From: Spirochaetota bacterium
Lineage (GTDB): Bacteria; Spirochaetota; UBA4802; UB4802
Reading direction: 5' to 3'
DNA length: 64,000 nucleotides
Assembly (NCBI GenBank): GCA_026414805.1
Contig: JAOAIH010000003.1
Span: 26,314-90,313, forward strand
A program made the translations under genes and the position numbers. Shown piece after piece: positions 7,131 to 39,805 of the stretch; positions within the stretch are counted from its first letter, which is position 1, and every line of letters starts with the position of its first letter. The notes beneath the pieces were generated by a model. It saw nothing but the letters and a program-made list of their open reading frames with translations, was not told the origin of the DNA and did not search any database.

Positions 7131-8363
7131 TTAGTGAGCTACCTTTTCATGTTTTTCAGGGAATAGTGGTATATATTTAGCAAACCACATATAGATAAGA
7201 ATCATGCATGCTATTGAACCTAAAAATATAAACCACTCCTGAATTGTTGGATTATATCCAAAGAAATCTTGCCATGGGAAATTTGGAACAGAAAATCCAT
7301 GAAGTAGAACATCTACTTTTAACATAACTATCGCTAAAACTCCACTTATCAAACCTGTAATAAAATATTTCTCGTTTTCACGCAATTTTTTTACATTAAG
7401 TATAACAATTGCCGCAAGTGAAGCCAGCAATTCCACTGCTACTACCCACCATCCATAATATCCACCCATCAGATCAACAAATTTCCTATCAAAAAGTGGA
7501 ACAAAGTGTGTTGCTAGTGTATAAAGATCATATACTCTGAAAAGGAAGTAAGCAATAAATGTTACACCAGCAATTTGTGCCAATGTCATATAAGATTCTT
7601 TGGGAACAAGTTCTTTCTTCATGACCCAGCTTGCAACTTTTGGTGCTAACATCATCAAGCATGGGCCACCAGCTATTGCAGCTACTATCGCCAAATAGAA
7701 ATAATGATGTCTAAACCAATAAGGTTTGGCATATAAAACGCCCCACATTCCTCCACCAAGAGAACCCTGATGGAAAAATGAAAGGAATGTACCGATAGCA
7801 GCAAATATCCACATTAGTTTGTGTAGGTAATGGGCGGTATAATGTACAACCGGGTATCTATCAAGATATTTGTTGCTTAATATAATGGGAAACAACTCAA
7901 TGCACAAAACTATGAAATAAAATGTTAAACACCACACTACTTCAGTGAGCATTGATTGTGGCATTGTATGTGGGCCCCAGTTGGGATACGCATAACCAAA
8001 CCATGCTCTGAGTGGTTGGCCGATATCAAACACAAGTAGGATAAAAGTAAATAGGTAACACATGAAACCAATAAGGACAGTGGAATTTATTAATGGCTGT
8101 AACTTATCAACCCTGAAAATATAAAGCATAAATCCAGTAAAAAATGCTCCACCGCCGAGTGCAACAAAGCCTAAGTCACCAATAATCCATAAGCCCATGG
8201 CAAATCGATTATTCATATCGGTGTATCCTAAGCCCCAGAATAAGATCTGAATACCAAAGATTACAAAAAGGGCTACCAGTGCAAAGAGCACATACAGAGA
8301 AATCTGTATATTCCTTGAGTAGCTATTCCATTCATTTTTCAAAAATTCAATTACTTTGCTCAC
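7131..8363 (-). CDS. NrfD/PsrC-family integral membrane subunit, QrcD-like
   Basis: About 10 TM segments, DLGFVALGGGAF, DIGQPLR, HQGSLGG; last gene of a cytochrome c/Mo-family/FeS operon. Confidence 0.8.
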   Translation of the reverse strand: MSKVIEFLKNEWNSYSRNIQISLYVLFALVALFVIFGIQILFWGLGYTDMNNRFAMGLWIIGDLGFVALGGGAFFTGFMLYIFRVDKLQPLINSTVLIGFMCYLFTFILLVFDIGQPLRAWFGYAYPNWGPHTMPQSMLTEVVWCLTFYFIVLCIELFPIILSNKYLDRYPVVHYTAHYLHKLMWIFAAIGTFLSFFHQGSLGGGMWGVLYAKPYWFRHHYFYLAIVAAIAGGPCLMMLAPKVASWVMKKELVPKESYMTLAQIAGVTFIAYFLFRVYDLYTLATHFVPLFDRKFVDLMGGYYGWWVVAVELLASLAAIVILNVKKLRENEKYFITGLISGVLAIVMLKVDVLLHGFSVPNFPWQDFFGYNPTIQEWFIFLGSIACMILIYMWFAKYIPLFPEKHEKVAH

Positions 8364-8385
8364 GGTTTACTCTCCTTCTACTTTT

Positions 8386-9216
8386 TTAGGAGTTTTTAAA
8401 TCCAGATATTTTATCACGAAGCCATTGCTGGCTTGTTAAATAATAAACTTTTGGATTTGGATATTCTTTGATTTTGATCCTTTTTTCATATTCAGACGGA
8501 TCTTTTGTTTTGAGTTCATCAATAGAATGCACAAGCCTAACAGCTCGGGGATCCTTCTGTACTTTTGGCTCATATACTGGCGAAGTAGGGTCATTAAGGT
8601 CGCCAAAAATTATAGCATTTGTTGGGCATGCACTGGCACATGCCGGGGTATATGTAACAGCATTGATATCAGTTATTCCTTTTGCAATAGCCTTATCACG
8701 TTCACGTTTCCAGATGTGTGAGCAAAATGTACATTTAACCATGGTACCGCGGGAAGCAATAGATACGTCAGGATTGAGGGATTCTTTAAAAGAACCTTCG
8801 TAGCGTGGTTTCCACCAGTGGAACACACGCGCTTCATACGGGCATGCTACCTGGCAGTACCTACAGCCTATGCATCGTGACCATATCTGGCTAACGACAC
8901 CATCATCGCCAACATCGGTAGCAACTACCGGGCATACAGTAACACATGGTGGATGCGGATGTTTTGGATCATTTCCTGAGCACTGCTGACACATCTTTGG
9001 TATATACGCAACTTTTACATCAGGGTACTGTGCCTTTGGATCCTTATCGTTTGTTACTTCTATCAGATCAAGAAAAGTGACTCTTTTTGGCACATCAGAA
9101 TCATCTTTAAAAATTGGAAGATTGTTTTCCTGAGAGCAGGCAATGTTACATGCTCCGCATCCAGTACATTTATCTAAATCTATAACCATTCCCCATCTTC
9201 TTGTCATTGTGGCCAT
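8386..9216 (-). CDS. 4Fe-4S dicluster protein, QrcC-like
   Basis: WGMVIDLDKCTGCGACNIAC, CQQC, CVTVCP, CIGCRYCQVACP, KCTFC, CASACP. Confidence 0.85.
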   Translation of the reverse strand: MATMTRRWGMVIDLDKCTGCGACNIACSQENNLPIFKDDSDVPKRVTFLDLIEVTNDKDPKAQYPDVKVAYIPKMCQQCSGNDPKHPHPPCVTVCPVVATDVGDDGVVSQIWSRCIGCRYCQVACPYEARVFHWWKPRYEGSFKESLNPDVSIASRGTMVKCTFCSHIWKRERDKAIAKGITDINAVTYTPACASACPTNAIIFGDLNDPTSPVYEPKVQKDPRAVRLVHSIDELKTKDPSEYEKRIKIKEYPNPKVYYLTSQQWLRDKISGFKNS

Positions 9217-9229
9217 AATTGTTCACCTC

Positions 9230-11197
9230 TTAACTCAGTTTTACTCGTGTTAACCACCAGTCAGAATAACCACTTAGTGGGTCTAATGCATCTGACATTA
9301 TGGGTTTTGGGTTAACACCTTTTTGGCTACCATATTCAGTCAGTTCTTCATGACCTAAACCAATAGGCACCGCAACCGTATCATAGGCAACCCGTTTTGT
9401 TAGATGTACTCTAACTGTTTCAAGTTCACCACGGGAAGATTCAATATCAATTTTGGAGCCTTCGGAAATCCCTTCTTTTGATGCTGTAACTGGATTCATC
9501 CATACCCAGCTTGTGTCGCCTTTTAAGATGGTATCTGGTAATCCTTTTAATACATAAGGAAGCGCCAGACCATTCCCTTCGCCAATTGTTGGTATTTCAA
9601 AAGGTACCATTGATATGGAGTAAGAACCCGAAGCTTGTAGTAATTTTTCCAATTCTTCAAGTTTTGCAGTTATGATATCTACAGGAATTTCCAAATTAGC
9701 AACATTTTTAGCCTGAAAGCTAACAACTTTGATAGTATCAAGATAACTATTCCATGGGAATTGAGCTGATATATTAGGTACATTTTTGGCAATTGCAAGT
9801 AGTGAATCTCCTGCATGTTTTGCTTCAAATTTGGCTGATACCGCTTGCCCATTGTATGGGATTTCAAGTGAAGTGAGTGTAGGAAAGACATAGTCAGCAT
9901 ATAATGCAGTATCATTAAGTAAAGAAGTGAACAACACTACAGTTGAAGCTTTTTTTAGTTTATCAGAAAGACGCTGCCCATAAACACTTGAATAAACCGG
10001 ATTGGCATTGTTTATCAGTACTATATCACAAGTCATATCGCTTGCAATATATTCATCAAGACCTTTGGTCTTTTTTGCAATAGCGGGTTTTGGAGGTGTT
10101 GTAAATGTAACAACCTTAACACTGTTGCCTAAACTACCAATCATACTGTTAATGGTTTGTATTATGGCAAATTCAGCAACTGAAGATGATACAACCTTTC
10201 CACCTTTACCTGCTACTGCAACCGGCCTGCGTGCATGTACTAAAGCTTTTGCAACAGACTCAATTGTTTCAAGTGATGCACCAGTAAGTTCGGATACCTT
10301 TTCGGGGGTGAATTTATTTATTAAAAGTTCAGTAAATCTTCCAAAATTTGTAGCCCCCGATCGCTTGCCATTCTTGAGCAAGTAATGTGCAACACCCATA
10401 GCAAAAATTGCTTCACTACCTGGTTTTACTGCAACCCACTGATCAGCCAATGAAGCAGTACGTGTTGCTATTGAATCAACCTGTATAAATTTAACATTCT
10501 TTTGTTTCCAGATATTTAATACACTATGCATTCTACCAGGATTACCCCAACCTTCAAAAAGGCGGGCACCAAAACTTACTACGCAATCAGCATTTTCAAA
10601 ATCATAGTCGATAGCTCCTTCAGTTTTCTGGGTTGCTACTGAACAGGCATTACTCAGAGCCCAATATCCAGCTTCCTGGTATACATGAGGACTTCCTGCA
10701 AATAGTACTATTCGCTCATTTAGCATTGATGTGGCGTCAGGGAATGCTGGGTTTATTGCAACAATCTGGTCTTGCTTCTTGTTATTAATGGCATCATTTA
10801 TTTTCTTTGAGATATCTGCTATAGCAGTTTCCCAGGAAACCGGCTCAAAATCAATTTTTCCTTTTTTACCGGTTCGTTTTAATGGAGTTTTAACACGTTC
10901 TGGATGGTAAAGAACCTGTAATAGAAGCTGTCCTGCAGCACACCCTTGATTAGATGTTTCAATTTTAACTGCCCTGTTTCCAATCATCCTGACATTTACA
11001 GTACATTTGTTGGGGCATTGGTCACAGATACTTGCTAAATATTTCTCTTCACCTTTAGGAGGGCGATACTGGTCTTGGGTCCATTCCACAAGCCATTGAA
11101 GGCCCATCCATGGACCAGGTGAAATAAGAGTACCAACACCAGTACCTACAACCGCGCCGCCTATCATTGTTAAAAAATCTTTTCGTTCGAGTTTCAT
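9230..11197 (-). CDS. Molybdopterin oxidoreductase family subunit, QrcB-like
   Basis: Tat-like ERKDFL, CDQCPNKC...C cluster motif, YHPERVKTPLKR, SWETA, molydop-binding C-terminal domain. Confidence 0.8.
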   Translation of the reverse strand: MKLERKDFLTMIGGAVVGTGVGTLISPGPWMGLQWLVEWTQDQYRPPKGEEKYLASICDQCPNKCTVNVRMIGNRAVKIETSNQGCAAGQLLLQVLYHPERVKTPLKRTGKKGKIDFEPVSWETAIADISKKINDAINNKKQDQIVAINPAFPDATSMLNERIVLFAGSPHVYQEAGYWALSNACSVATQKTEGAIDYDFENADCVVSFGARLFEGWGNPGRMHSVLNIWKQKNVKFIQVDSIATRTASLADQWVAVKPGSEAIFAMGVAHYLLKNGKRSGATNFGRFTELLINKFTPEKVSELTGASLETIESVAKALVHARRPVAVAGKGGKVVSSSVAEFAIIQTINSMIGSLGNSVKVVTFTTPPKPAIAKKTKGLDEYIASDMTCDIVLINNANPVYSSVYGQRLSDKLKKASTVVLFTSLLNDTALYADYVFPTLTSLEIPYNGQAVSAKFEAKHAGDSLLAIAKNVPNISAQFPWNSYLDTIKVVSFQAKNVANLEIPVDIITAKLEELEKLLQASGSYSISMVPFEIPTIGEGNGLALPYVLKGLPDTILKGDTSWVWMNPVTASKEGISEGSKIDIESSRGELETVRVHLTKRVAYDTVAVPIGLGHEELTEYGSQKGVNPKPIMSDALDPLSGYSDWWLTRVKLS

Positions 11198-11248
11198 GGA
11201 TGTAATAACTCCTTGCTTGAATTTCGATTCAATATAAAAAAAGAATGA

Positions 11249-11767
11249 TCAATCATGACATACTGCACACGCATTGCTGATTTTTAATGCAGTGTGACAG
11301 TCCATACATACTCCCATGGCCATTTTACCCTTGATTTTTTCGGTAGTTGTTGAATTGCCCTTATCACCGTGACAAGAAACACAATATGCCTTCTTTTCAT
11401 TTTTCATCACTGCTATGTGACTAAAATACACCAGGTCGGGCTGCTGGGCAAAAGATTCCCAGGGTTTGTCATTATCTCCAAAGCCTGAAAAAAATACTTG
11501 TGTATTGACTTTGCTTGGATCATGACATTGCTTACACACAGCAACTGTGGGAATGCCATTGAATCTTCCATTGCTATCATAACTGTGGCATGTCTCACAG
11601 TCAGAAGCTCCATATTTAGTTGTATGGGTACGATGGTTGAATGGAAGAAGTTTTTTTGCCTGTACATTCATTGCATAGTCACAGGCCTGTTGAAAAACAA
11701 TAAAAGAGATGTATGCAAATATAACAAAAGGTAAGAAAAAAAGTAAAAAAGAACGTGTCCCTTTCAC
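11249..11767 (-). CDS. Membrane-anchored pentaheme cytochrome c, QrcA-like
   Basis: N-terminal TM and five CxxCH motifs (CETCH, CKQCH, CVSCH, CMDCH, CAVCH); AGGAG RBS before a GTG start. Confidence 0.85.
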   Translation of the reverse strand: MKGTRSFLLFFLPFVIFAYISFIVFQQACDYAMNVQAKKLLPFNHRTHTTKYGASDCETCHSYDSNGRFNGIPTVAVCKQCHDPSKVNTQVFFSGFGDNDKPWESFAQQPDLVYFSHIAVMKNEKKAYCVSCHGDKGNSTTTEKIKGKMAMGVCMDCHTALKISNACAVCHD

Positions 11768-28803: not shown

Positions 28804-30051
28804 TTACACAATCAAATTTTCCCCTACTAATTTTGTAAACGATTCAATTGTTACATTCATTCCATAACCTGTACATATTGTAGATAGTTGAAGATGACAA
28901 TTTTCACAGGCAGTAATAACCATTTCTGCTCCTGATTTTTCAATTTGCTCTTTCTTTGGTTTGCCACTTTTGATTCTGAATTCCTCATTATCAAGGGCAA
29001 CCAGTCCACCACCTCCTCCACAGCACCAATTATATTCGCGTGTTGGGTTCATCTCGCGGTAATCTTTTGCTAGCATCTTCACTATTTCACGAGGTTGATC
29101 GTATATTCCACCATTGCGTCCTAACTGACATGGATCATGCCATGTCACTGGTTTGCTGATTACATCTTCTTTTACTTTTATTTTGCCCTCTTTTATATAA
29201 CGGTAAATTACTTCCACAATGCTTGAAACTTTAAATGGCAATGGTCCCATTAAAAACTTAGGTATTCTGTATGCGGTGCCACATTCAACAATAACTATCT
29301 CCTTAACTCCTAATTCCTTTGCTTCATTGATAACTCTATTGGCAATAAAATTTGCTTTTTCACTGTCACCTACAAAAAAACCAAAGTTAACTGCTTCAAA
29401 GTAGCTTAATGTCCAGTCCTCTTTGGCAGCATTAAATATTGCAGCAGGATACACAATTGAGTGGGCACCTGAAAGCCCTACATAAAGAATATTTGCACCT
29501 TTCTTTTCCATTGGAATAAGGCCTTCGCTAATTGGTGCTTTAATCAGTTTTTGCACTTCTTTTTCAAGGTCTTTGATAACACTCTTGTAACCCTCCTTGA
29601 ACATATCAACGCTTTTACCTTTTTCTACAGCACCATCTGCAAGCATAACCAACTCTTCAGGTGCATTGCCATAGGCTACCAACAATTCTTTTGCAATTCC
29701 TAAGATATATGGCATGTCAATACCAAATGGGCAGAATACTGTACAGCGCCTGCAACCAGTACATGAAAATGCAGCTTCTTTAAGCTCTTCCATAAGGTTT
29801 TCATCAAATTCTTTTGCATCACCCCACCAGGGCAAAAATTTTCCAGTAGGTCTGAAGTATTTTCTGAATACCTTTCGTACTACTTCAGCCCTCCCTACAG
29901 GGGAATATTCTTTTTTAGGAATGCCCTGATATACGTGGCATGTATCATAACATAGGCCGCAGCGAGTGCAGAGATCTAAATAATACAACATGGGCCTGTT
30001 CAACTTCTTTTCAATAACCTGTGTAAGTTCTTGTACTTTTTCCTTATCCAT
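28804..30051 (-). CDS. HdrD/DsrK/HmcF-family Fe-S protein (two 4Fe-4S plus CCG domain)
   Basis: CTRCGLCYDTC, CTGCRRCTVFCP, ECGTAY, HDPCQLGR, CCGGGGG, TACENC. Confidence 0.85.
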   Translation of the reverse strand: MDKEKVQELTQVIEKKLNRPMLYYLDLCTRCGLCYDTCHVYQGIPKKEYSPVGRAEVVRKVFRKYFRPTGKFLPWWGDAKEFDENLMEELKEAAFSCTGCRRCTVFCPFGIDMPYILGIAKELLVAYGNAPEELVMLADGAVEKGKSVDMFKEGYKSVIKDLEKEVQKLIKAPISEGLIPMEKKGANILYVGLSGAHSIVYPAAIFNAAKEDWTLSYFEAVNFGFFVGDSEKANFIANRVINEAKELGVKEIVIVECGTAYRIPKFLMGPLPFKVSSIVEVIYRYIKEGKIKVKEDVISKPVTWHDPCQLGRNGGIYDQPREIVKMLAKDYREMNPTREYNWCCGGGGGLVALDNEEFRIKSGKPKKEQIEKSGAEMVITACENCHLQLSTICTGYGMNVTIESFTKLVGENLIV

Positions 30052-30053
30052 GG

Positions 30054-30776
30054 CTACTTCCTTTTACGATAATGTGCTAGAAATGTAAATACCGAATGTA
30101 CCATTTTGCTGAATGGAAACATCATGAGGAAAATATTTGCAAAAAGTACATGAAGAACCAAAATAGTAAAGTGCGATAGCTCTGTAATCTTGTACGATAG
30201 CTCCGGTTTCAGCATTATCATGCTTTGCAGCCATTGCCGGTAATCGTTCACATCAACCTTAAGTACTGCACCCCAATCGCTATATCGTTCAGCCAGATGA
30301 AGTATTGATCCAAACAATATACAGAAGAAAAGTACGAGCAGTATCACGAAATCTTCAGGAATAGAGATTTCACGATAAGGAGTTCCAAACCTCCTGAAAA
30401 GAAAATATAATGTTGTAATCATAAGAACTATGCCGACAACACCGCCCCCTAAAAATATTTTATGTGGAATTATTTGAATAAAGGCAAAGTCACCTATAAG
30501 TTCCAGATGCCCTAAAAATAATAACAAAAAGAAAAAATGAAATAGTATTATAACAAACCAAAATGATTTTTGCTTATTATAAGCGTTAGGAACTATGAGT
30601 GCTTCGTATAATAATCCAAATACCTTTGAACCTTTTTTAGGAAAAATAGCTCCTGTACCAGGGGGCGCAGGAGCTTTGAATATAACATACAGTTTATATA
30701 AAAGCCCTAAAATCAAGGTTGCAAAGGCAATATATACCATCGGCACTAAAATAAAATATGATATATAGCCCAGCAT
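30054..30776 (-). CDS. NarI/DsrM/HdrE-family diheme-b membrane subunit
   Basis: About 5 TM segments; conserved His in LFHFF..GHL and LHVLF..FPFSKMVH. Confidence 0.8.
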   Translation of the reverse strand: MLGYISYFILVPMVYIAFATLILGLLYKLYVIFKAPAPPGTGAIFPKKGSKVFGLLYEALIVPNAYNKQKSFWFVIILFHFFFLLLFLGHLELIGDFAFIQIIPHKIFLGGGVVGIVLMITTLYFLFRRFGTPYREISIPEDFVILLVLFFCILFGSILHLAERYSDWGAVLKVDVNDYRQWLQSMIMLKPELSYKITELSHFTILVLHVLFANIFLMMFPFSKMVHSVFTFLAHYRKRK

Positions 30777-30799
30777 TGTTTACCTCTTTTAGATGTTAT

Positions 30800-31039
30800 T
30801 TATTTAAGCTTTTTAATATAGAACTTTGTTACGTTGCCATCCTTAACTGTATCAAGAATTTCATTTCCACTTGTTTTGGCCCATGCAGGAAAGTCAGCCA
30901 GTGCTCCAGGGTCAGTAGTTTCTGCCATAAGAATTTGGCCTACCTGCATTTTTTTAATTTGCTGTGAAACTTTAACAACTGGTAAAGGGCATGCCAACCC
31001 TTTTAAATCCATTGTTACATCTGGTTTAATGTCGCTCAT
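30800..31039 (-). CDS. tusA: TusA-family sulfur carrier
   Basis: DLKGLACPLP (CPxP), TTDPGALADFPAWA. Confidence 0.9.
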   Translation of the reverse strand: MSDIKPDVTMDLKGLACPLPVVKVSQQIKKMQVGQILMAETTDPGALADFPAWAKTSGNEILDTVKDGNVTKFYIKKLK

Positions 31040-31144
31040 TGCTACACTCCTTAATTTAAAAAAATATTAATATTCCATTATCATATATTATTTTAAATTA
31101 TATATTGCACACGTGTGAAATACAAGAAGAAAACCACAAATAAA

Positions 31145-31702
31145 TTATATGAATAACTGAATCTTACTGTCTGAAGCTTCCTGTAAAAATGTTGCAACAC
31201 CAACTGATTTAATATCAGGATAGTCAATCATCTCCTCCATTTTAAGGCCCATCAAATCCATTGACATTTCGCATACATAAATTTTTACACCCAGTTCTGC
31301 AGCAAGTGCTATCATCCCATCAAGGTTCTGAATATTCTTTTTTTTCATTATATGTTTCATCATTGCTGTTCCCAAACCACCCATATTCATTTTTGAAAGT
31401 TTTACCCGTGAAGCACCTTTTGGGAGCATAAAGCTGAACATTTTGCCAAAGAAGTTTTTCCCTTTACCTTTTTTCTTCTTATCTCGTAATGCAGGTGTTG
31501 CCCAGAACGTGAAAAACATAACAGCTTCCATGCCCATTGCAACAGACCCTGTTGCAATAATAAATGCGGCTAAAAGTTTGTCTAAATCACCACTGAAAAC
31601 AACCATTGCAATCTTATCTTTTCGACCATCTTGAATCTCTTTGATCTGGTTCTGAATGGATTCTAGCATTTTAATAACAGGTTTACTTTTTACAATAACC
31701 AT
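31145..31702 (-). CDS. DsrE2-like (DsrE/DrsH family) sulfurtransferase
   Basis: VFSGDLDK, FFTFW, YVCEMSMDLMG, VGVATFL. Confidence 0.85.
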   Translation of the reverse strand: MVIVKSKPVIKMLESIQNQIKEIQDGRKDKIAMVVFSGDLDKLLAAFIIATGSVAMGMEAVMFFTFWATPALRDKKKKGKGKNFFGKMFSFMLPKGASRVKLSKMNMGGLGTAMMKHIMKKKNIQNLDGMIALAAELGVKIYVCEMSMDLMGLKMEEMIDYPDIKSVGVATFLQEASDSKIQLFI

Positions 31703-32040
31703 GGTGGCACCCTCATGTATAAAATTATATATCTATTAAAGAATATAATAAATTAATACAACACTAAAACTATTATATACCACTTTCAAAAAATAATTAC
31801 AATAAAATAGAATATTTGTTAAAATAATAAACTATTTGAATTGTTAAGTCAAACTATTTATATATTTTTTTTATTAATAATCCCCCATAGAAATTTTTTT
31901 ATATTCAATATGTATTGTGAGCATGACTGGTGGAGGACCGATAAAGTATAACTTCTTTAACAAAATATATAAACAAAAAAATAGTATATGCAATAATAAA
32001 AAAATGTTAAAAAATATATAAAAAATTTAAAAAAAATAAA

Positions 32041-32070
32041 TTGACAGGCTATAATAGAAATAAATATAAT
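32041..32070 (+). promoter_or_regulatory. Sigma-70-type promoter for the psrABC operon
   Basis: TTGACA-N18-TATAAT, 60 nt upstream of the start codon. Confidence 0.65.
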
Positions 32071-32129
32071 TCTAAAATAGTAAAATTATAAATGTAGATG
32101 TAATACTATCTTCTGCAGGAGAATGTGTA

Positions 32130-34334
32130 ATGTTAGGAAAAATTAGTAGAAGAGAATTTATTAAGATAGCAGGGGCTGGGGTTGGCACTCTGGCGGTTGG
32201 CGGAGGCCTTTATAAATTAGTACAAGATGTAATTACGGATAAAAATGCCAATGGACCAGTAGTAAAAACACCTACATATTGTGAAATGTGTACCTACCAG
32301 TGCGCAGGATGGGTTTATAAAAAAGGTGACATGCCATGGAAAATAGTAGGCAATGAGCTTGATGAGCATTGTTATGGCAGAATGTGCACAAAAGGGTTAT
32401 CAGGTCTTGGTGCTTATTTAGATCCCAACAGGCTAAGAACACCTCTAATTAGGAAGAAAGAAAGAGGAAAACAGGTTTTCAAAGAAGCAACATGGGATGA
32501 AGCTTTTACCTATATTGCTGATAAAATGGAATACTTAAAGCAAAAGTACGGTCCTGAGAGCGTTGCATTGTTCAGTCATGGTTCTGGTGGTCATTGGTTT
32601 AAAATGCTTTTAAAAGCTTATGGTACAAATAGTTTTGCTGCTCCATCCTATGCCAACTGTCGTGGTCCTCGCGAAGAAGGATATGTGCTTACGTATGGTG
32701 AACCAATTGATACCCCTGAGCGCACAGATATGAAAAACACGAAATGCTTGGTTCTTATTGGTTCACACATTGGTGAAAATACTCATAGCCAGCAGGTCAT
32801 TGAATTTTCTCAGGCAGTGGCCAATGGAGCAAGTATCATTGTAGTTGATCCACGGTTTTCAGTTGCAGCTAGTAAGGCAAAATACTGGTTACCAATTAAA
32901 CCAGGTACTGATATTGCACTATTATTGGCGTGGATACATGTATTGATCTATGATGAATTATTTGATAAGCAATATGTATACAATAATACTTCTGGATTTG
33001 AGCAATTAAAGCAATCGGTAAAAAATACCACACCTGAATGGGCGTACCCTATTACATCAATTCAGCCTGAATTGATACGTGAAACAGCAAAAGAAATGGC
33101 AAAATACTCCCCTGCAACGATTGTTCATCCGGGAAGGCATAATGTATGGTATGGTGATGATACGCAAAGAGTAAGAGCAGGAGCAATATTGAATGCTCTA
33201 CTTGGTAGTTGGGGCAGGAAAGGCGGATTTTTCTATCCAGAAAAAGTAGATTTGCCTGAATATCCAACTCCTCCGTTCCCTCATCCTAAGAAATCATTTA
33301 AAGATGCTGTGAATAATAAATATGAACTGGCTAATTTGATTGTTTCATCAGGTATTTGTGATGCAACCATTCATAATGTGATGAATGGGAGCTCATTTTA
33401 TGAAGGTTGGTTCATATATGGTTCAAATCTATTGAAAGCCCTACCACAACAGGAAAAAACCATTAAAGCATTGCAGGATCTTGAATTGGTTGTAGTTGTG
33501 GATATTTTACCAACAGAAATAACTGGTTGGGCAGATGTTGTACTTCCTGATACTACGTATTTAGAGCGATATGATGACATAAGAACCTCACAGGGCAGAA
33601 CACCTCAAATAGCTTTGCGTATGCCTGCATTTAATCCAAGGTATAATTCAAAGCCAGCATGGTGGATTGCCAAAAACCTTGCCGAAAAGATGGGTCTGGG
33701 GGATTATTTCCCGTGGAAAACAATTGAAGAGTATCTTGATTATAAATTAAAAGCTGTTGGAACCTCACTTGATGAAATGAAACAGGTTGGCGTTAAAAAT
33801 TTCGATCGACAAACACCACTGTATATAACAGGTGCACAATTACCACGATTAGATACCCCCAGTGGTAAAATTGAATTGTATTCATCAACATTGGCAAGTT
33901 ATGGATTTGACCCAATTCCCGTTTATACAAAACATGAAGAGCCACCTAAAGGATATTACAGGTTACTGTATGGACGTTCTCCTTTCCACTCATTTGCACG
34001 GACTATAAATAATCCTGTTCTAACGCAATTGCAGGATGAAAATACAGTATGGGTACATCCTACTGTTGCTTTGGATTGGAATTTGAAGAATGATCAGTAT
34101 GTAAGATTGGAAAATCAGGATGGTGTTGTAAGTAATAAGATTAGGGTTAAGGTAACAGAAAGGATACGACCTGATTGTGTGTACATGGTTCATGGATTTG
34201 GGAGTAAGCAGAAGCAGTTGAAGCGTGCGTATAAAAAAGGTGCTGATGACCAGCAACTCATAACAAAAGTAAGTGTTGATCCTATTATGGGTGGTCAGGC
34301 AATGCATGGTAATTTTGTTACCTTTAAAGTTTAG
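32130..34334 (+). CDS. Polysulfide/thiosulfate reductase catalytic subunit (PsrA/PhsA-like)
   Basis: Tat motif SRREFIK, CEMCTYQC...C, probable Mo-ligand Cys in ANCRGPR, DLPxTxYLERYD-type MGD motif. Confidence 0.85.
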   Translation: MLGKISRREFIKIAGAGVGTLAVGGGLYKLVQDVITDKNANGPVVKTPTYCEMCTYQCAGWVYKKGDMPWKIVGNELDEHCYGRMCTKGLSGLGAYLDPNRLRTPLIRKKERGKQVFKEATWDEAFTYIADKMEYLKQKYGPESVALFSHGSGGHWFKMLLKAYGTNSFAAPSYANCRGPREEGYVLTYGEPIDTPERTDMKNTKCLVLIGSHIGENTHSQQVIEFSQAVANGASIIVVDPRFSVAASKAKYWLPIKPGTDIALLLAWIHVLIYDELFDKQYVYNNTSGFEQLKQSVKNTTPEWAYPITSIQPELIRETAKEMAKYSPATIVHPGRHNVWYGDDTQRVRAGAILNALLGSWGRKGGFFYPEKVDLPEYPTPPFPHPKKSFKDAVNNKYELANLIVSSGICDATIHNVMNGSSFYEGWFIYGSNLLKALPQQEKTIKALQDLELVVVVDILPTEITGWADVVLPDTTYLERYDDIRTSQGRTPQIALRMPAFNPRYNSKPAWWIAKNLAEKMGLGDYFPWKTIEEYLDYKLKAVGTSLDEMKQVGVKNFDRQTPLYITGAQLPRLDTPSGKIELYSSTLASYGFDPIPVYTKHEEPPKGYYRLLYGRSPFHSFARTINNPVLTQLQDENTVWVHPTVALDWNLKNDQYVRLENQDGVVSNKIRVKVTERIRPDCVYMVHGFGSKQKQLKRAYKKGADDQQLITKVSVDPIMGGQAMHGNFVTFKV

Positions 34335-34377
34335 TGTAATTACGAAAGCACATATCAAATGATGTAAAGAGGTCAAC

Positions 34378-34929
34378 ATGGCAAATAAGACTAAAAAGTA
34401 TGTAATGGTTATAGATACGCGTTTATGTGTTGGTTGTGGAGCATGTGTAGCAGCATGTAAAATGGAAAATCAGGTTCCTGAAGGCTTGCATAGGGATTGG
34501 ATTGTGGAACAGGTAACTGGAACTTATCCTAATCTTTCTATGGAAATTCGTTCAGAACGTTGTAATCACTGTTCCAATGCTCCATGTATTACTTCATGTC
34601 CAACAGGTGCAAGTCATCGTAAAGAAGGAACAAATATTGTTGTAGTAACAGCTAATAAATGCACTGGTTGCAAAGCATGTATGGCTTCATGCCCATACAA
34701 TGCTCGCTTTGTAATGCCAGATGGGTATGTAAGTAAATGTACTTTCTGTGAACATAGATTAGAAGAGGGTTTAGAACCCGCTTGTGCTTCAGCGTGTCCA
34801 ACACATGCCATTACGTTTGGCAATTTGAATGACACAATGAACAAGGTTTCAAAATTATTAAAAACCAGAAAGTATAAAACCATTATTCCCGAGGCCGGGA
34901 CTGATCCAAATATATTCTATTTATTATAA
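34378..34929 (+). CDS. PsrB/PhsB/NrfC-like 4Fe-4S subunit
   Basis: CVGCGACVAAC, CNHC..PCITSCP, CTGCKACMASCPY, KCTFC..PACASACP. Confidence 0.9.
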   Translation: MANKTKKYVMVIDTRLCVGCGACVAACKMENQVPEGLHRDWIVEQVTGTYPNLSMEIRSERCNHCSNAPCITSCPTGASHRKEGTNIVVVTANKCTGCKACMASCPYNARFVMPDGYVSKCTFCEHRLEEGLEPACASACPTHAITFGNLNDTMNKVSKLLKTRKYKTIIPEAGTDPNIFYLL

Positions 34930-34954
34930 CAAATAATGAAATTAAAAGAATAGC

Positions 34955-35947
34955 ATGAGGTTGCTTATGAATGAAATAGTACTAACAACAAAAAAAGCGA
35001 TTGAGGCAGGCCATTCAATGAGTATTTGGAAATGGGAAGTGCCAATGTATCTTTTCCTTGGTGGCCTCACAGCAGGAATTCTCCTTATTGCTGCTTTTAT
35101 GATTTTGAAAGATAAACCAAAGAAATATCCATTTTCAACTAATAAATTAATTTTGCTGGCACCAATTATTTTAAGTGTTGGTATGTTATTTCTTTTCTTA
35201 GATCTTGACCATAAGTTGTATGTATGGCGATTTTATACTGCATTCCGAATCACATCGGTTATGTCATGGGGTGCATGGATATTGATGCTTGTATATCCTT
35301 TAAGTATTGGGTTAATATTGGCAACTGTCAAGAAAGGTTATGCTGAGTATTACGATAGATTTAATAAATGGCTGAAGAATTCCAAATACAATAAACTATC
35401 GCCAATTATTGATAAATTAATTGTCCTTGCTGAAAAGTACAAAAAGCCTCTGGCTATAGCAACAATACCAGTAGGTATTTTACTTGGTATATATACAGGA
35501 ATTTTATTAAGTGCGTTTTCAGCACGGCCATTCTGGAATTCAGAACTTCTTGGATTTTTATTTTTAGTTTCGGGATTATCTACTGGAGCTGCACTGGTTA
35601 TTTTACTAGCAAAAGATCATGAGGAAAGGAAATTCATCACAAAACTTGATATTGGGTTTATTGCAGTAGAGGCAATATTACTTGTACTGTATATTTTTGG
35701 TATGCTGTCTTCGTCTTTACAGCATATTGATGCAATAAAGTTAATTTTGGGTGGCGAATTGACGCCTATATTTTGGTCTTTTGTGTTTGTTATAGGAATG
35801 CTGATTCCTTTAACACTTGAGCTTCTTGAACTGAAAGGTAAGCCTATACCTTCATCCATTGCTGCATCATTGGTGCTTGCTGGTGGGTTGGCTTTACGAT
35901 TTATTTTTGTTGCAGCTGGCCAGATTACAAACTGGCTACCATATTAA
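34955..35947 (+). CDS. PsrC/NrfD membrane anchor
   Basis: WEVPMYLFLGGL, LDL, SVMSWGAW, YTGILL..RPFWN, SGLSTG. Confidence 0.9.
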   Translation: MRLLMNEIVLTTKKAIEAGHSMSIWKWEVPMYLFLGGLTAGILLIAAFMILKDKPKKYPFSTNKLILLAPIILSVGMLFLFLDLDHKLYVWRFYTAFRITSVMSWGAWILMLVYPLSIGLILATVKKGYAEYYDRFNKWLKNSKYNKLSPIIDKLIVLAEKYKKPLAIATIPVGILLGIYTGILLSAFSARPFWNSELLGFLFLVSGLSTGAALVILLAKDHEERKFITKLDIGFIAVEAILLVLYIFGMLSSSLQHIDAIKLILGGELTPIFWSFVFVIGMLIPLTLELLELKGKPIPSSIAASLVLAGGLALRFIFVAAGQITNWLPY

Positions 35948-35978: not shown

Positions 35979-36491
35979 ATGGAAAAGAAACCTTATGCAT
36001 CACCGTACATCGCTGGAGTAGGGTTGGGTTTAGTGTTATTAGCAGCCTTTTTCTTTACAGGCCATGGCCTAGGAGCTTCAGGTGCAATTACTCGGACTAT
36101 AGTTGCTGTTGAAAAAGTTATTTCCCAGGAACATGTTGATGCTAATCCATATCATGCTGAGTATGGTGGTGGCAATACAAATCCGCTCAATAATTGGCTG
36201 GTATTTCAGTTATTGGGTGTAATAGTTGGTGGTATGCTTTCTGGAATTCTTGCAGGAAGATTTAGAAAAGAAATTAACCATGGCCCGCAAATTACGCCTA
36301 AACAGAGATGGGTATATGCAGTAATTGGTGGCGCTCTTTTTGGTTTTGGTGCAAAATTTGCACGAGGATGTACCAGTGGCTTTATTTTAACTGGTGGGGC
36401 TGGTATGGCGCTTGGCGCATGGGTAGGCATGATGGTGATGTTTGCAGTTGCATATATTACTGCATATTTTGTTAGAAAACTTTGGATATAA
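35979..36491 (+). CDS. YeeE/YedE-family sulfur transporter half
   Basis: PYIAGVGLG, GLGASG, FARGCTSG; start moved to the ATG at 35979 after AAGGGGG. Confidence 0.8.
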   Translation: MEKKPYASPYIAGVGLGLVLLAAFFFTGHGLGASGAITRTIVAVEKVISQEHVDANPYHAEYGGGNTNPLNNWLVFQLLGVIVGGMLSGILAGRFRKEINHGPQITPKQRWVYAVIGGALFGFGAKFARGCTSGFILTGGAGMALGAWVGMMVMFAVAYITAYFVRKLWI

Positions 36492-36502
36492 GAGGTGGTT
36501 AT

Positions 36503-37108
36503 ATGTTTGCACCATTATCAGTATATTTTAACTGGAGCAATGGTATAGATTTACTAGTATCTTTTATCATCGGTATTGGGTTTGGTTTTGCATTGGAACA
36601 GGGTGGATTTGGTAATTCAAGGAAGCTGGCAATGCAGTTTTATTTTAGGGATTTGACAGTATTAAAAGTCATGTTTTCTGCTATGGTTACAGCAATGGCA
36701 GGAATAGTGTTTTTTACTGCATTTGGTTGGCTTGATACCAATAGTATGTTCGTTCCTCAAACATATATCTGGGCCCAGATATTAGGCTGTGCCATAATGG
36801 GTGTGGGTTTTGCTATTGGTGGCTATTGCCCGGGAACTAGTTTTGTTGGTCTTTCCACTCTTAAGATAGATGCGCTTTTCTTTATTATTGGTCTTTTTAT
36901 AGGTGTGTTTATTTTTGGTGAACTATTCCCCATTTTAGAAGAATTGTACCATGGCAAATATAGTGGGAATATGGGAAGAATAACTCTGTATGAATTTTTA
37001 GGTGTACGGCCTGGTGTTATTGCCGCAATAATTTTAATCATGGCTATTGGCGCCTTTTGGGGGGCCGAAAAGCTTGAAGAAAAATTTGGTAACCAGATTA
37101 TACAGTAA
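36503..37108 (+). CDS. YeeE/YedE-family sulfur transporter half
   Basis: GFGFALEQGGF, FRDLTVLKVMF, GGYCPGT; start moved to the ATG at 36503 after GAGGTG. Confidence 0.85.
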   Translation: MFAPLSVYFNWSNGIDLLVSFIIGIGFGFALEQGGFGNSRKLAMQFYFRDLTVLKVMFSAMVTAMAGIVFFTAFGWLDTNSMFVPQTYIWAQILGCAIMGVGFAIGGYCPGTSFVGLSTLKIDALFFIIGLFIGVFIFGELFPILEELYHGKYSGNMGRITLYEFLGVRPGVIAAIILIMAIGAFWGAEKLEEKFGNQIIQ

Positions 37109-37120
37109 GGAGTGTACTTT

Positions 37121-37747
37121 ATGAAACTGGAAAACAAGCAAATAGCTGTCTATACGGCTATTATTTTGGCGATAATTATGCTTTTTTTACCTGGCCAGGA
37201 CCCTACCAAGGTACATATTGATTTACAGGCTATGGCCCAGATGATAGGGAATAAGGAAGACCATGTTACGCCAGGTGAATTATCACAGTGGATAATAGCA
37301 GGCAATAATGACTTTCAACTGATAGATATACGAACTAAAGAAGAATATGAAAAAGGGCATATTGAAGGAGCGATAAACATCCCGCTTCAAAATCTATTAA
37401 ATAGAAATGTAATAATGGATGAGCTCAATCATGATAAAAAGATTGTGCTCTATTCCAATGGAAGCTCACATGCATCTCAGGCATGGGTAGTATTAAAGGG
37501 GTTAGGCTTTGACTGTTATATCCTTGAAGGCGGATATAATGGCTGGAATGCTGTTGTACTTAATCCTACAGCTGGGTCAAATGCAACTGATGATGAAGTG
37601 TTGCTGTATGCTAAACAGAAAGCTGTTGCAGACTATTTTGGCGGAAGCAGTATTCAGCAGCAAAAACCAGCTGCAAGCGCAGCACCTGCTCCTGTAGTAC
37701 CACAAAAACCTCAAGGTGGCAAAAAGAAGAAAATGCAGGGATGTTAA
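37121..37747 (+). CDS. Membrane-anchored rhodanese-like protein with a C-terminal Cys tail
   Basis: N-terminal TM, LIDIR..EY..GHIEGAINIP, LEGGYNGW; active-site loop reads YSNGSS; ends KKKKMQGC. Confidence 0.8.
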   Translation: MKLENKQIAVYTAIILAIIMLFLPGQDPTKVHIDLQAMAQMIGNKEDHVTPGELSQWIIAGNNDFQLIDIRTKEEYEKGHIEGAINIPLQNLLNRNVIMDELNHDKKIVLYSNGSSHASQAWVVLKGLGFDCYILEGGYNGWNAVVLNPTAGSNATDDEVLLYAKQKAVADYFGGSSIQQQKPAASAAPAPVVPQKPQGGKKKKMQGC

Positions 37748-39577: not shown

Positions 39578-39805
39578 TTATTCAACTTCCGAAGCACATG
39601 ATTCCTTGCAGGTGCTTATCTTTAAAAGGTCGTATGCCCAGCAATAACCACTGTATGCAGAGTATAATACAGCCAATCCCAGAGCTAAAAGAATAATAGT
39701 TCCTATAGCACCCGGTTTTAATATAATTATATTAAGTAAAAATGAAACCCCAATTAAAACTCTGATATACCTGTCAGCTGGACCAACATTCTTTTTCATA
39801 TTCAT
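39578..39805 (-). CDS. DUF2892/YgaP-like small membrane protein
   Basis: MKKNVGPADRYIR, two TM segments, GYCWAY..KISTC. Confidence 0.8.
   Translation of the reverse strand: MNMKKNVGPADRYIRVLIGVSFLLNIIILKPGAIGTIILLALGLAVLYSAYSGYCWAYDLLKISTCKESCASEVE

Follow-up and report, generated by a model that had tools for sequence, protein, structure and literature searches.

The cassette and its four genes

The window analysed here is a 64-kb stretch of DNA from a Spirochaetota bacterium, and the element in question is a set of four adjacent genes on its minus strand, which encode a DsrE2, a TusA, a NarI-like cytochrome b and an iron-sulfur (Fe-S) protein with a CCG domain (the CCG protein). An original prediction made from the DNA letters had regarded the last two as a pair resembling DsrMK, serving TusA and DsrE2 instead of DsrC, and had proposed that they act as a quinol:TusA-persulfide oxidoreductase. 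The gene order given there, dsrE2, tusA, cytochrome b and CCG protein with gaps of 105, 23 and 2 base pairs, agrees exactly with the listing of open reading frames (ORFs), all four genes lying on the minus strand. The four genes are predicted to form one operon. The features of the cassette are as follows.

31145..31702, minus strand: dsrE2, single-Cys DsrE2B-type sulfur-carrier protein, 185 amino acids (aa), with Cys144 in YVCEMS
30800..31039, minus strand: tusA, sulfur-carrier protein, 79 aa, with Cys17-Pro-Leu-Pro
30054..30776, minus strand: NarI/DsrM/HdrE-type dihaem cytochrome b, membrane quinone-interacting subunit, 240 aa, about five transmembrane (TM) segments
28804..30051, minus strand: DsrK/HmcF/TmcB-superfamily cytoplasmic Fe-S subunit (the CCG protein), 415 aa, with two [4Fe-4S] motifs, one CCG motif and Cys257 in ECGT
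31703..32129: AT-rich divergent intergenic region between dsrE2 and the psrA gene of the neighbouring island, with promoter-like sites on both strands

Pfam models match all four products. The DsrE2 product scores 164 bits on PF13686 (DrsE_2, cut-off 25) and 64.8 bits on the NCBIfam DsrE2 equivalog NF047629, whose cut-off is 210. TusA reaches 72.6 bits on PF01206 (cut-off 28.6) and has the Cys-Pro-X-Pro active site; its score on the NCBIfam TusA equivalog, 46.3 bits, is under the cut-off of 78, and its relatives in the PDB are TusA/YhhP-type proteins. The membrane subunit matches PF02665 (Nitrate_red_gam) at 45.3 bits against a cut-off of 22.9, which identifies it as a NarI-type dihaem cytochrome b, and the histidine pairs His80/His90 and His209/His227 lie on TM2 and TM5 with NarI-like spacing. 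Its NCBIfam matches, to narI (34 bits), TmcC (29.3 bits) and DsrM (NF038037, 26.2 bits), are all below the respective cut-offs (300 for DsrM). The CCG protein matches Pfam CCG at 57.6 bits and Fer4 at 47 bits. It contains two CX2CX2CX3C motifs and one full CCG motif, C308-X34-CC-X37-C382XXC385 (the central pair being C343 and C344), while its first CCG domain is degenerate, Cys257 being all that remains of that motif. DsrK is its top NCBIfam match with 265.2 bits (NF045796, cut-off 400), ahead of TmcB with 208.6 (NF045724, cut-off 735) and HmcF with 188.2 (NF045711, cut-off 750); GlpC, GlcF and LutA are also among the matches.

The four genes recur as a unit

Among the related loci, 53 extend 2 kb or more upstream of the CCG gene, and each of these contains all four genes. 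Since they co-occur in 53 of 53 loci, their grouping is far beyond chance. Complete cassettes were found 61 times, with two different gene orders; over all loci, the order DsrE2-TusA-cytochrome b-CCG protein was met 49 times and DsrE2-cytochrome b-TusA-CCG protein 11 times, and every incomplete cassette is cut by a contig end. A metagenome scan contributed 80 further loci. The window shares the four genes with seven loci from Spirochaetota metagenome-assembled genomes (MAGs), at 87-93% identity. They are also kept in the 4.9-Mb genome GCA_942493035.1 (locus L008, 66% CCG identity), in an Acidobacteriota MAG (67%), on metagenome contigs (55-56%) and on an Olavius-associated Desulfobacterota-type contig (49%), and the linkage spans loci of Spirochaetota, Acidobacteriota and Desulfobacterota origin. 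In one search, 3808 homologues were obtained at E <= 1e-10, and 2978 were obtained at E <= 1e-60 in a search centred on a Desulfobacterota-type member. Many members of the cassette family come from MAGs with the labels Desulfobacterales and Desulfatiglandales. A search of encoding contigs yielded no exact copy of the window's own CCG protein, and the window sequence was present in one DNA sequencing run (a hot-springs metagenome, probably the sample of origin) and in zero RNA runs. Full-text searches of the literature, in which several papers were inaccessible, returned no description of the cassette; it thus appears to be an undescribed gene set, found in many bacteria.

The residues expected to be functional are conserved throughout the 61 complete cassettes. 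In TusA, C17, P18 and P20 of the CPxP motif are present in all of them, as are the haem ligands His80, His90, His209 and His227 of the cytochrome b. Cys144 of DsrE2 is found in all 60 cassettes that align at this column, the remaining one having a gap there. The Fe-S subunit has 14 conserved cysteines (eight of the Fe-S motifs, five of the CCG motif, and Cys257), and 13 of them are invariant; the exception, Cys343, is kept in 60 of 61 and replaced by Phe in one. The two carriers are more conserved than the redox subunits, with median identities to the window's proteins of 66% and 64% for the former and of 43% and 54% for the latter.

The Fe-S subunit belongs to a clade of its own

To gather homologues of the Fe-S subunit, 1.8 billion cluster representatives were searched exhaustively and without a profile; two trees were then built, one quick and one careful, and clade representatives were scored with NCBIfam. 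The original prediction had called for a phylogeny of this subunit against DsrK, HmcF and TmcB, and this phylogeny puts the family outside both bona fide DsrK and the HmcF/TmcB-like proteins, in a separate clade with a support of 100/99, whose members score 235-269 bits on the DsrK model. DsrK and DsrK-like proteins form a clade of their own (99/99), with an inner core clade (100/99) whose proteins score 413-622 bits and so exceed the DsrK cut-off, and the HmcF/TmcB-like group is supported at 100/96. Judging from these trees, the cassette family does not nest inside DsrK.

The cluster cysteines of the CCG protein are all common to DsrK and HmcF. The motif at Cys257, in turn, reads [C/V]ECGTA in 61 of 61 cassettes, with Thr replacing His, whereas DsrK, HmcF and TmcB mostly have ECGH at the equivalent position. 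ECGT may therefore be used as a simple diagnostic signature of the cassette family. For DsrK, HmcF and TmcB, the strictly conserved cysteine of GECGH has been proposed to be catalytic, in the case of DsrC through reduction of its trisulfide (Barbosa et al. 2024, PMC10861901). Cys257 is the counterpart of this ECG(H) cysteine, and since it matches the proposed catalytic residue of DsrK and is retained, it argues for S-S chemistry over plain electron transfer.

A divergent relative was noted at locus L094 (8001-9986, P0123). It is a fusion of a NarI-like and a CCG protein, 661 aa long and 41% identical, which has SESGH at the motif, with Ser for the motif Cys and the His kept. Neither TusA nor DsrE2 is encoded beside the fusion, and the gene after it is a small one resembling a multihaem cytochrome; a member of its cluster is annotated in [Eubacterium] cellulosolvens. 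This protein marks the edge of the cassette family.

The cassette and DsrC

That no DsrC lies near the cassette was also part of the original prediction, and it holds for the whole window: no DsrC was found among the ORFs of the 64 kb, the C-termini of which were checked and the small ones of which were compared with Pfam, and DsrAB is likewise missing from the window. In 835 kb of related loci, a C-terminal motif search, the only kind applied there, found no DsrC/TusE-type C-terminus. Desulfobacterales and Desulfatiglandales, however, are sulfate-reducer orders that carry DsrC. Since the cassette family occurs in such orders as well, its independence of DsrC rests on linkage, phylogeny and the change of motif, and not on absence. 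The idea that the pair serves TusA/DsrE2 instead of DsrC thus gains from the synteny in 53 of 53 loci, the separate clade and the retained Cys257, but the absence of DsrC that was to accompany it stands for the window and the 835 kb of flanks only.

Structural comparison of DsrE2 and the Fe-S subunit

Among solved structures, 3PNX ('putative sulfurtransferase DsrE') lies nearest to the window's DsrE2, at 7e-30 and with the Cys in register, and the next is 2QS7, which is of the DsrE2B type. The sole cysteine of the window's protein, Cys144, also corresponds to the DsrE2B type, while proteins of the DsrE2A type have two conserved cysteines (PMC4175335). 3PNX is a crystal structure deposit with six chains. 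Since this closest relative was solved as a crystal structure, we took DsrE2 to be a soluble oligomeric carrier, and the alternative that it is a membrane anchor was considered unlikely.

For the Fe-S subunit, an AlphaFold2 model was obtained with a predicted local distance difference test (pLDDT) score of 82 and a predicted template modelling score (pTM) of 0.84. The best match of this model in a fold search was EtfD of M. smegmatis (9ojn), with a TM-score of 0.67 on the query and 18% identity, and LutA and HdrB came next. A sequence search of the PDB with the CCG protein found no DsrK structure; only EtfD and HdrB matched.

A proposed role in the reduction of carrier-bound sulfane sulfur

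We propose that the cassette encodes a DsrC-independent menaquinol:carrier-sulfane-sulfur oxidoreductase of the DsrMK/HdrDE type which works in the reductive direction, and we consider the chances of this reading to be about even. The model is DsrMKJOP, in which electrons pass from menadiol over the DsrM haems to the noncubane cluster of DsrK and on to the DsrC trisulfide, with release of sulfide, and for which it was noted that DsrMK by itself could in principle suffice (PMC10861901). By analogy, the NarI-type dihaem cytochrome b would exchange electrons with menaquinone and move them across the membrane, to the two [4Fe-4S] clusters of the cytoplasmic subunit and from there to its single CCG-bound, noncubane-type cluster and the adjacent Cys257. 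Sulfane sulfur would be delivered by TusA (Cys17) together with a trimeric single-Cys DsrE2 (Cys144), in the form of a TusA persulfide or of a mixed TusA-S(n)-DsrE2 bridge that would stand in for the DsrC trisulfide. The carrier sulfane sulfur would then be reduced to H2S and both carrier thiols regenerated. In this genome the sulfur may come from the adjacent island described below, with its periplasmic PsrABC-like reductase, split YeeE-type importer and membrane rhodanese-like protein, and menaquinol may be supplied by, among others, a Qrc-like complex 17 kb away. The whole would constitute a cytoplasmic branch of sulfur respiration or of sulfane-sulfur disposal. Substrate, direction of electron flow and any energy coupling are all inferred here from sequence.

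The reductive direction is favoured for three reasons. Firstly, the cassette comes without an enzyme that could process an oxidised product. Secondly, the regulators found beside it elsewhere belong to small repressor types, of which one or more appear thiol-based. Thirdly, the local context is reductive, with its Psr-like enzyme, YeeE halves, rhodanese-like protein and Qrc-like complex. An analogue of such a function is Pcar_0429, a disulfide reductase fused to rhodanese, TusA and DsrE domains which has been proposed to be an S0 reductase (PMC3543383).

Several points weigh against this proposal, and the main objection is energetic. Persulfide and polysulfide couples lie at about -260 to -270 mV and menaquinol at about -70 mV, so the reduction is uphill, and the NarI-type topology would make the reductive step electrogenic, against the membrane potential. 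On the side of the carriers, DsrE2B of M. cuprina was inert to all sulfur compounds tried and did not bind TusA in vitro (PMC4175335). The tree, too, leaves room for other placements: the cassette family is weakly sister to the HmcF-like group (80/44), the deep branching order is not fixed, and the approximately unbiased (AU) test does not reject a position of the family beside core DsrK (p = 0.17). EtfD, to which the model of the Fe-S subunit is structurally closest, is an enzyme without known thiol chemistry. Furthermore, no regulator gene was found in 31703..32129 or adjoining the cassette in the window's lineage, and the search for DsrC covered the window and the flanks. The original prediction of a quinol:TusA-persulfide oxidoreductase is thus supported in part: its core, the pairing with TusA/DsrE2, has strong comparative support, while the enzyme activity itself is putative.

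The strongest rival, and a serious one, assumes the same complex working oxidatively, and we regard it as rather unlikely, though clearly ahead of the two rivals discussed after it. Here the CCG subunit would oxidise carrier thiols or persulfides, for example TusA-SH + HS- to TusA-SSH, or TusA-SSH + DsrE2-SH to a trisulfide, and the electrons would pass via the cytochrome b to menaquinone. The purpose would be to feed respiration or to supply biosynthesis with activated sulfur; a role of this kind has been proposed for the DsrMK(J) of sulfur oxidisers and of cable bacteria. This direction is downhill, since thiol/persulfide couples lie well below menaquinone, and the problem of the reductive direction is discussed in PMC10861901. 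Moreover, in a model for cable bacteria DsrMKJ makes the DsrC trisulfide while quinone is reduced, fed by a route from YeeE through TusA to DsrEFH type II (PMC13293266), and the rhd-tusA-dsrE2 sets of sulfur oxidisers serve oxidative pathways (PMC11094781). Some relatives of the cassette come by name from sulfidic settings (e.g., a sulfidic-cave MAG), and the run holding the window sequence is from hot springs. However, with neither DsrAB, sHdr, persulfide dioxygenase nor Sox in the cassette, an oxidatively formed trisulfide would be left without an outlet. The neighbours in this genome are of reductive types (Psr-like and Qrc-like), and the small repressors found elsewhere, if responsive to sulfane sulfur, suggest its removal rather than its production.

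The cassette could also be an ordinary DsrMK paralogue of the DsrM2K2 type that reduces the DsrC trisulfide of a Dsr system located in another part of the genome, with TusA and DsrE2 merely delivering sulfur upstream of DsrC, which we hold to be very improbable. DsrK is indeed the best NCBIfam match of the CCG protein, at 265 bits, dsrMK paralogues are common in sulfate reducers (PMC6018796), Desulfurella amilsii has dsrE-like genes beside dsrK, dsrM, dsrC, dsrL and dsrAB (PMC6378623), and the MAG orders in which the family is abundant are those of Dsr-based sulfate reduction. Yet this score is far under the DsrK cut-off, the family forms a clade apart from the proteins that pass it, ECGT replaces ECGH in every cassette, and the linkage is always to TusA and DsrE2, with no DsrC/TusE C-terminus found by motif in the flanks. 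To our knowledge, the Spirochaetota MAGs that carry the cassette belong to a lineage not known for sulfite reducers, which also counts against this paralogue. Just as poor a prospect is a module for electron transfer to or from the quinone pool, like EtfD/EMO or LutA/GlpC, performing no S-S chemistry and leaving TusA/DsrE2 to serve cofactor thiolation or maturation of the complex: the top folds (EtfD, then LutA) and the existence of CCG-domain enzymes that do not reduce disulfides (GlpC, GlcF, LutA) would fit it, but the cassette encodes no other redox enzyme or electron-transfer flavoprotein (ETF) as a partner, the proposed catalytic Cys257 is invariant, and both carriers, which retain the active cysteines, show stronger conservation than the two redox subunits.

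Stated more broadly, the cassette may be a widespread oxidoreductase that is coupled to menaquinone and acts on sulfane sulfur carried by TusA and DsrE2 or bridging them, in organisms without a Dsr system; we advance this only tentatively, and with less confidence than the reductive reading itself. In the current view, DsrMK-type complexes serve DsrC, both in sulfite respiration and in the oxidation of sulfur, and the cassette would be a sister module with carriers of its own. If this is true, the hot-spring spirochaete and other hosts would gain a cytoplasmic, possibly energy-conserving step of sulfur respiration or sulfane-sulfur disposal, single-Cys DsrE2 proteins would receive a first function, and quinone-linked sulfur chemistry would reach many anaerobes that are not regarded as respiring sulfur. 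With its two subunits, the pair would further be a simple system in which to study S-S cleavage by a single noncubane cluster and one cysteine, and whether this step conserves energy.

Comparison with known systems

Closest in composition is DsrMK, the core of the menadiol:DsrC-trisulfide oxidoreductase DsrMKJOP (PMC10861901), which likewise combines a NarI-type dihaem cytochrome b with a cytoplasmic Fe-S protein. DsrK and the cassette protein both have two [4Fe-4S] motifs, one full CCG motif and a conserved Cys left from a lost second CCG motif, and in both systems a small cysteine-bearing protein is the presumed substrate. In contrast to DsrMK, the cassette has no DsrJOP, is linked to TusA/DsrE2 and not to DsrC/DsrAB, carries ECGT in place of GECGH, and is found in lineages that are not known to respire sulfite. 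HdrDE of Methanosarcina, a methanophenazine:CoM-S-S-CoB oxidoreductase, is similarly built of a membrane cytochrome b and a CCG-type Fe-S subunit, and would share with the cassette the cytoplasmic S-S reduction and the redox-loop architecture. However, HdrD has two complete CCG motifs and two noncubane clusters where the cassette protein has one, at 308-385, and the substrate of HdrDE is a cofactor heterodisulfide, while that of the cassette would be protein-bound sulfur. HmcEF and TmcBC of Desulfovibrio also pair a single-CCG HdrD-like subunit, conserved Cys included, with a NarI-like membrane subunit; the cassette differs from Hmc and Tmc in lacking periplasmic cytochrome c subunits and in its sub-cut-off scores on HmcF (188 bits) and TmcB (209 bits).

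With respect to the carriers, the cassette resembles the rhd-tusA-dsrE2 relay of Allochromatium vinosum and the sHdr-linked TusA/DsrE3 sets, where TusA also lies beside a DsrE2-family gene and a link to Hdr-type Fe-S proteins exists; in this genome a rhodanese-like gene lies near the cassette as well. The relay of sulfur oxidisers, however, feeds DsrEFH/DsrC/rDsrAB or the soluble sHdr-LbpA for oxidation, whereas the sole redox partner in the cassette is the membrane pair, and the cassette's DsrE2 is of the single-Cys type closest to 3PNX and 2QS7, unlike that of the relay. In anaerobic sulfur cyclers, the YTD cluster (yeeE-tusA-dsrEFH type II, PMC13293266) unites TusA with an importer of the YeeE type and a DsrE-family protein, as this locus does. 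Identity of the cassette with the YTD cluster was considered and rejected: the two conserved hypothetical proteins of that cluster are DsrF- and DsrH-like, while the cassette has no such genes and tusA is followed by those for the cytochrome b and the CCG protein. Sulfur goes on to DsrC in the YTD model, and the YeeE genes of the window sit in an accessory island. Proteins of the Pcar_0429 type (FAD disulfide reductase with rhodanese, TusA and DsrE) and CstA of S. aureus also dedicate TusA- and DsrE-like modules to one reducing unit, but they are soluble, flavin- and NAD(P)H-dependent and fused, while the cassette is membrane-bound, quinone-linked, based on Fe-S clusters and made of separate proteins. 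Finally, EtfD/EMO (ETF:menaquinone oxidoreductase) is a fused membrane and CCG protein that works with EtfAB, while the cassette has its two subunits as separate proteins, and neither the window nor the set of recurrent neighbours includes etfAB.

Genomic neighbourhood in this genome

Beyond the divergent intergenic region lies an island of about 6 kb (about 31.7-37.9 kb), and a gene for a YgaP-like protein and a Qrc-like complex are found elsewhere in the window. These features are listed below.

32130..35947, plus strand: accessory island, part 1, PsrABC/PhsABC-like periplasmic molybdoenzyme (NCBIfam, Pfam)
32130-34334, plus strand: catalytic subunit with twin-arginine translocation (TAT) signal, PsrA/PhsA-like (PhsA model 472 bits, cut-off 694)
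34378-34929, plus strand: 4Fe-4S subunit of the Psr-like enzyme
34955-35947, plus strand: NrfD-type anchor of the Psr-like enzyme
35979-36491 and 36482-37108, plus strand: accessory island, part 2, a pair of half-size membrane proteins of the YeeE/YedE sulfur-transport type (PF04143)
37112..37747, plus strand: accessory island, part 3, membrane-anchored rhodanese-like protein (PF00581, 81.6 bits)
39578..39805, minus strand: small membrane protein with YgaP-like TM region (DUF2892), 75 aa (representative matches PF11127 at 1e-20)
7131..11767, minus strand: QrcABCD-like menaquinone reductase complex, outside the cassette, Qrc being the top NCBIfam match of each subunit
11249-11767, minus strand: Qrc-like multihaem cytochrome c (QrcA 93 bits, cut-off 180)
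9230-11197, minus strand: Qrc-like Mo-less molybdopterin-like subunit (QrcB 306 bits, cut-off 440)
8386-9216, minus strand: Qrc-like Fe-S subunit (QrcC 271 bits, cut-off 400)
7131-8363, minus strand: Qrc-like membrane subunit (QrcD 325 bits, cut-off 570)

The two YeeE genes overlap, the first matching the C-terminal half of the PF04143 profile and the second its N-terminal half, and the TsuA and YedE models score weakly. The rhodanese-like protein has the active-site loop VLYSNGSSHAS, with Ser at the position of the catalytic Cys, and its C-terminus consists of an Ala/Pro/Gln-rich linker followed by KKKKMQGC, thus ending in Cys. By nucleotide comparison, the island is missing from the close relatives L001, L003, L004, L005, L007, L014 and L017, but L015 has it, with a nucleotide identity of about 82%, which amounts to an insertion/deletion polymorphism. 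Since it is absent from seven close relatives, we regard the island as accessory, and a place of the Psr/YeeE/rhodanese block in the conserved unit was rejected. The YgaP-like protein (71-75 aa, with C-terminal cysteines), on the other hand, is a recurrent upstream neighbour of the cassette (nine loci). In most relatives without the island its gene lies just upstream of dsrE2 on the same strand (L003-L006, L016, L017 and L026 are among the carriers), and in the window it is displaced from the cassette by the inserted island and a pectinacetylesterase-like gene.

The Qrc-like complex lies 17 kb from the cassette. Qrc is the menaquinone reductase of sulfate reducers, and such a complex is unexpected in a Leptospira-like spirochaete. 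Taken together, the genes found in the island and the Qrc-like complex suggest a menaquinone-based anaerobic sulfur metabolism.

Neighbours of the cassette in other lineages

Regulator genes recur beside the cassette in other lineages, with MarR at 14 loci, CsoR-family proteins at 10 and ArsR at 3. The CsoR-family neighbours have an x-C-Y-C motif, with Tyr in place of the Cu-ligand His, and resemble the thiol-based CstR sensors; this motif would fit thiol-based sensing. As a guess, induction by sulfane sulfur would in turn fit its disposal by reduction. The CsoR-family regulator adjoins the cassette in one subfamily (L009, L011-L013, L035, L038, L042, L043, L045, L047, L048 and L066), where genes for a CopZ-like HMA protein (MSCQHC) and for a small protein of the zinc-ribbon type are flanking neighbours as well.

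At no fewer than eight loci, a gene for a FadL/TodX outer-membrane channel lies beside the cassette on the same strand, downstream of it in seven and upstream in L019. Such genes were noted in L008 (11335-12519), L095 (11306-12553), L056, L058, L061, L067, L078, L084 and L019, and also in Olavius-type loci. Channels of this type carry hydrophobic compounds, and it is pure speculation that those beside the cassette could admit elemental sulfur or organic polysulfanes.

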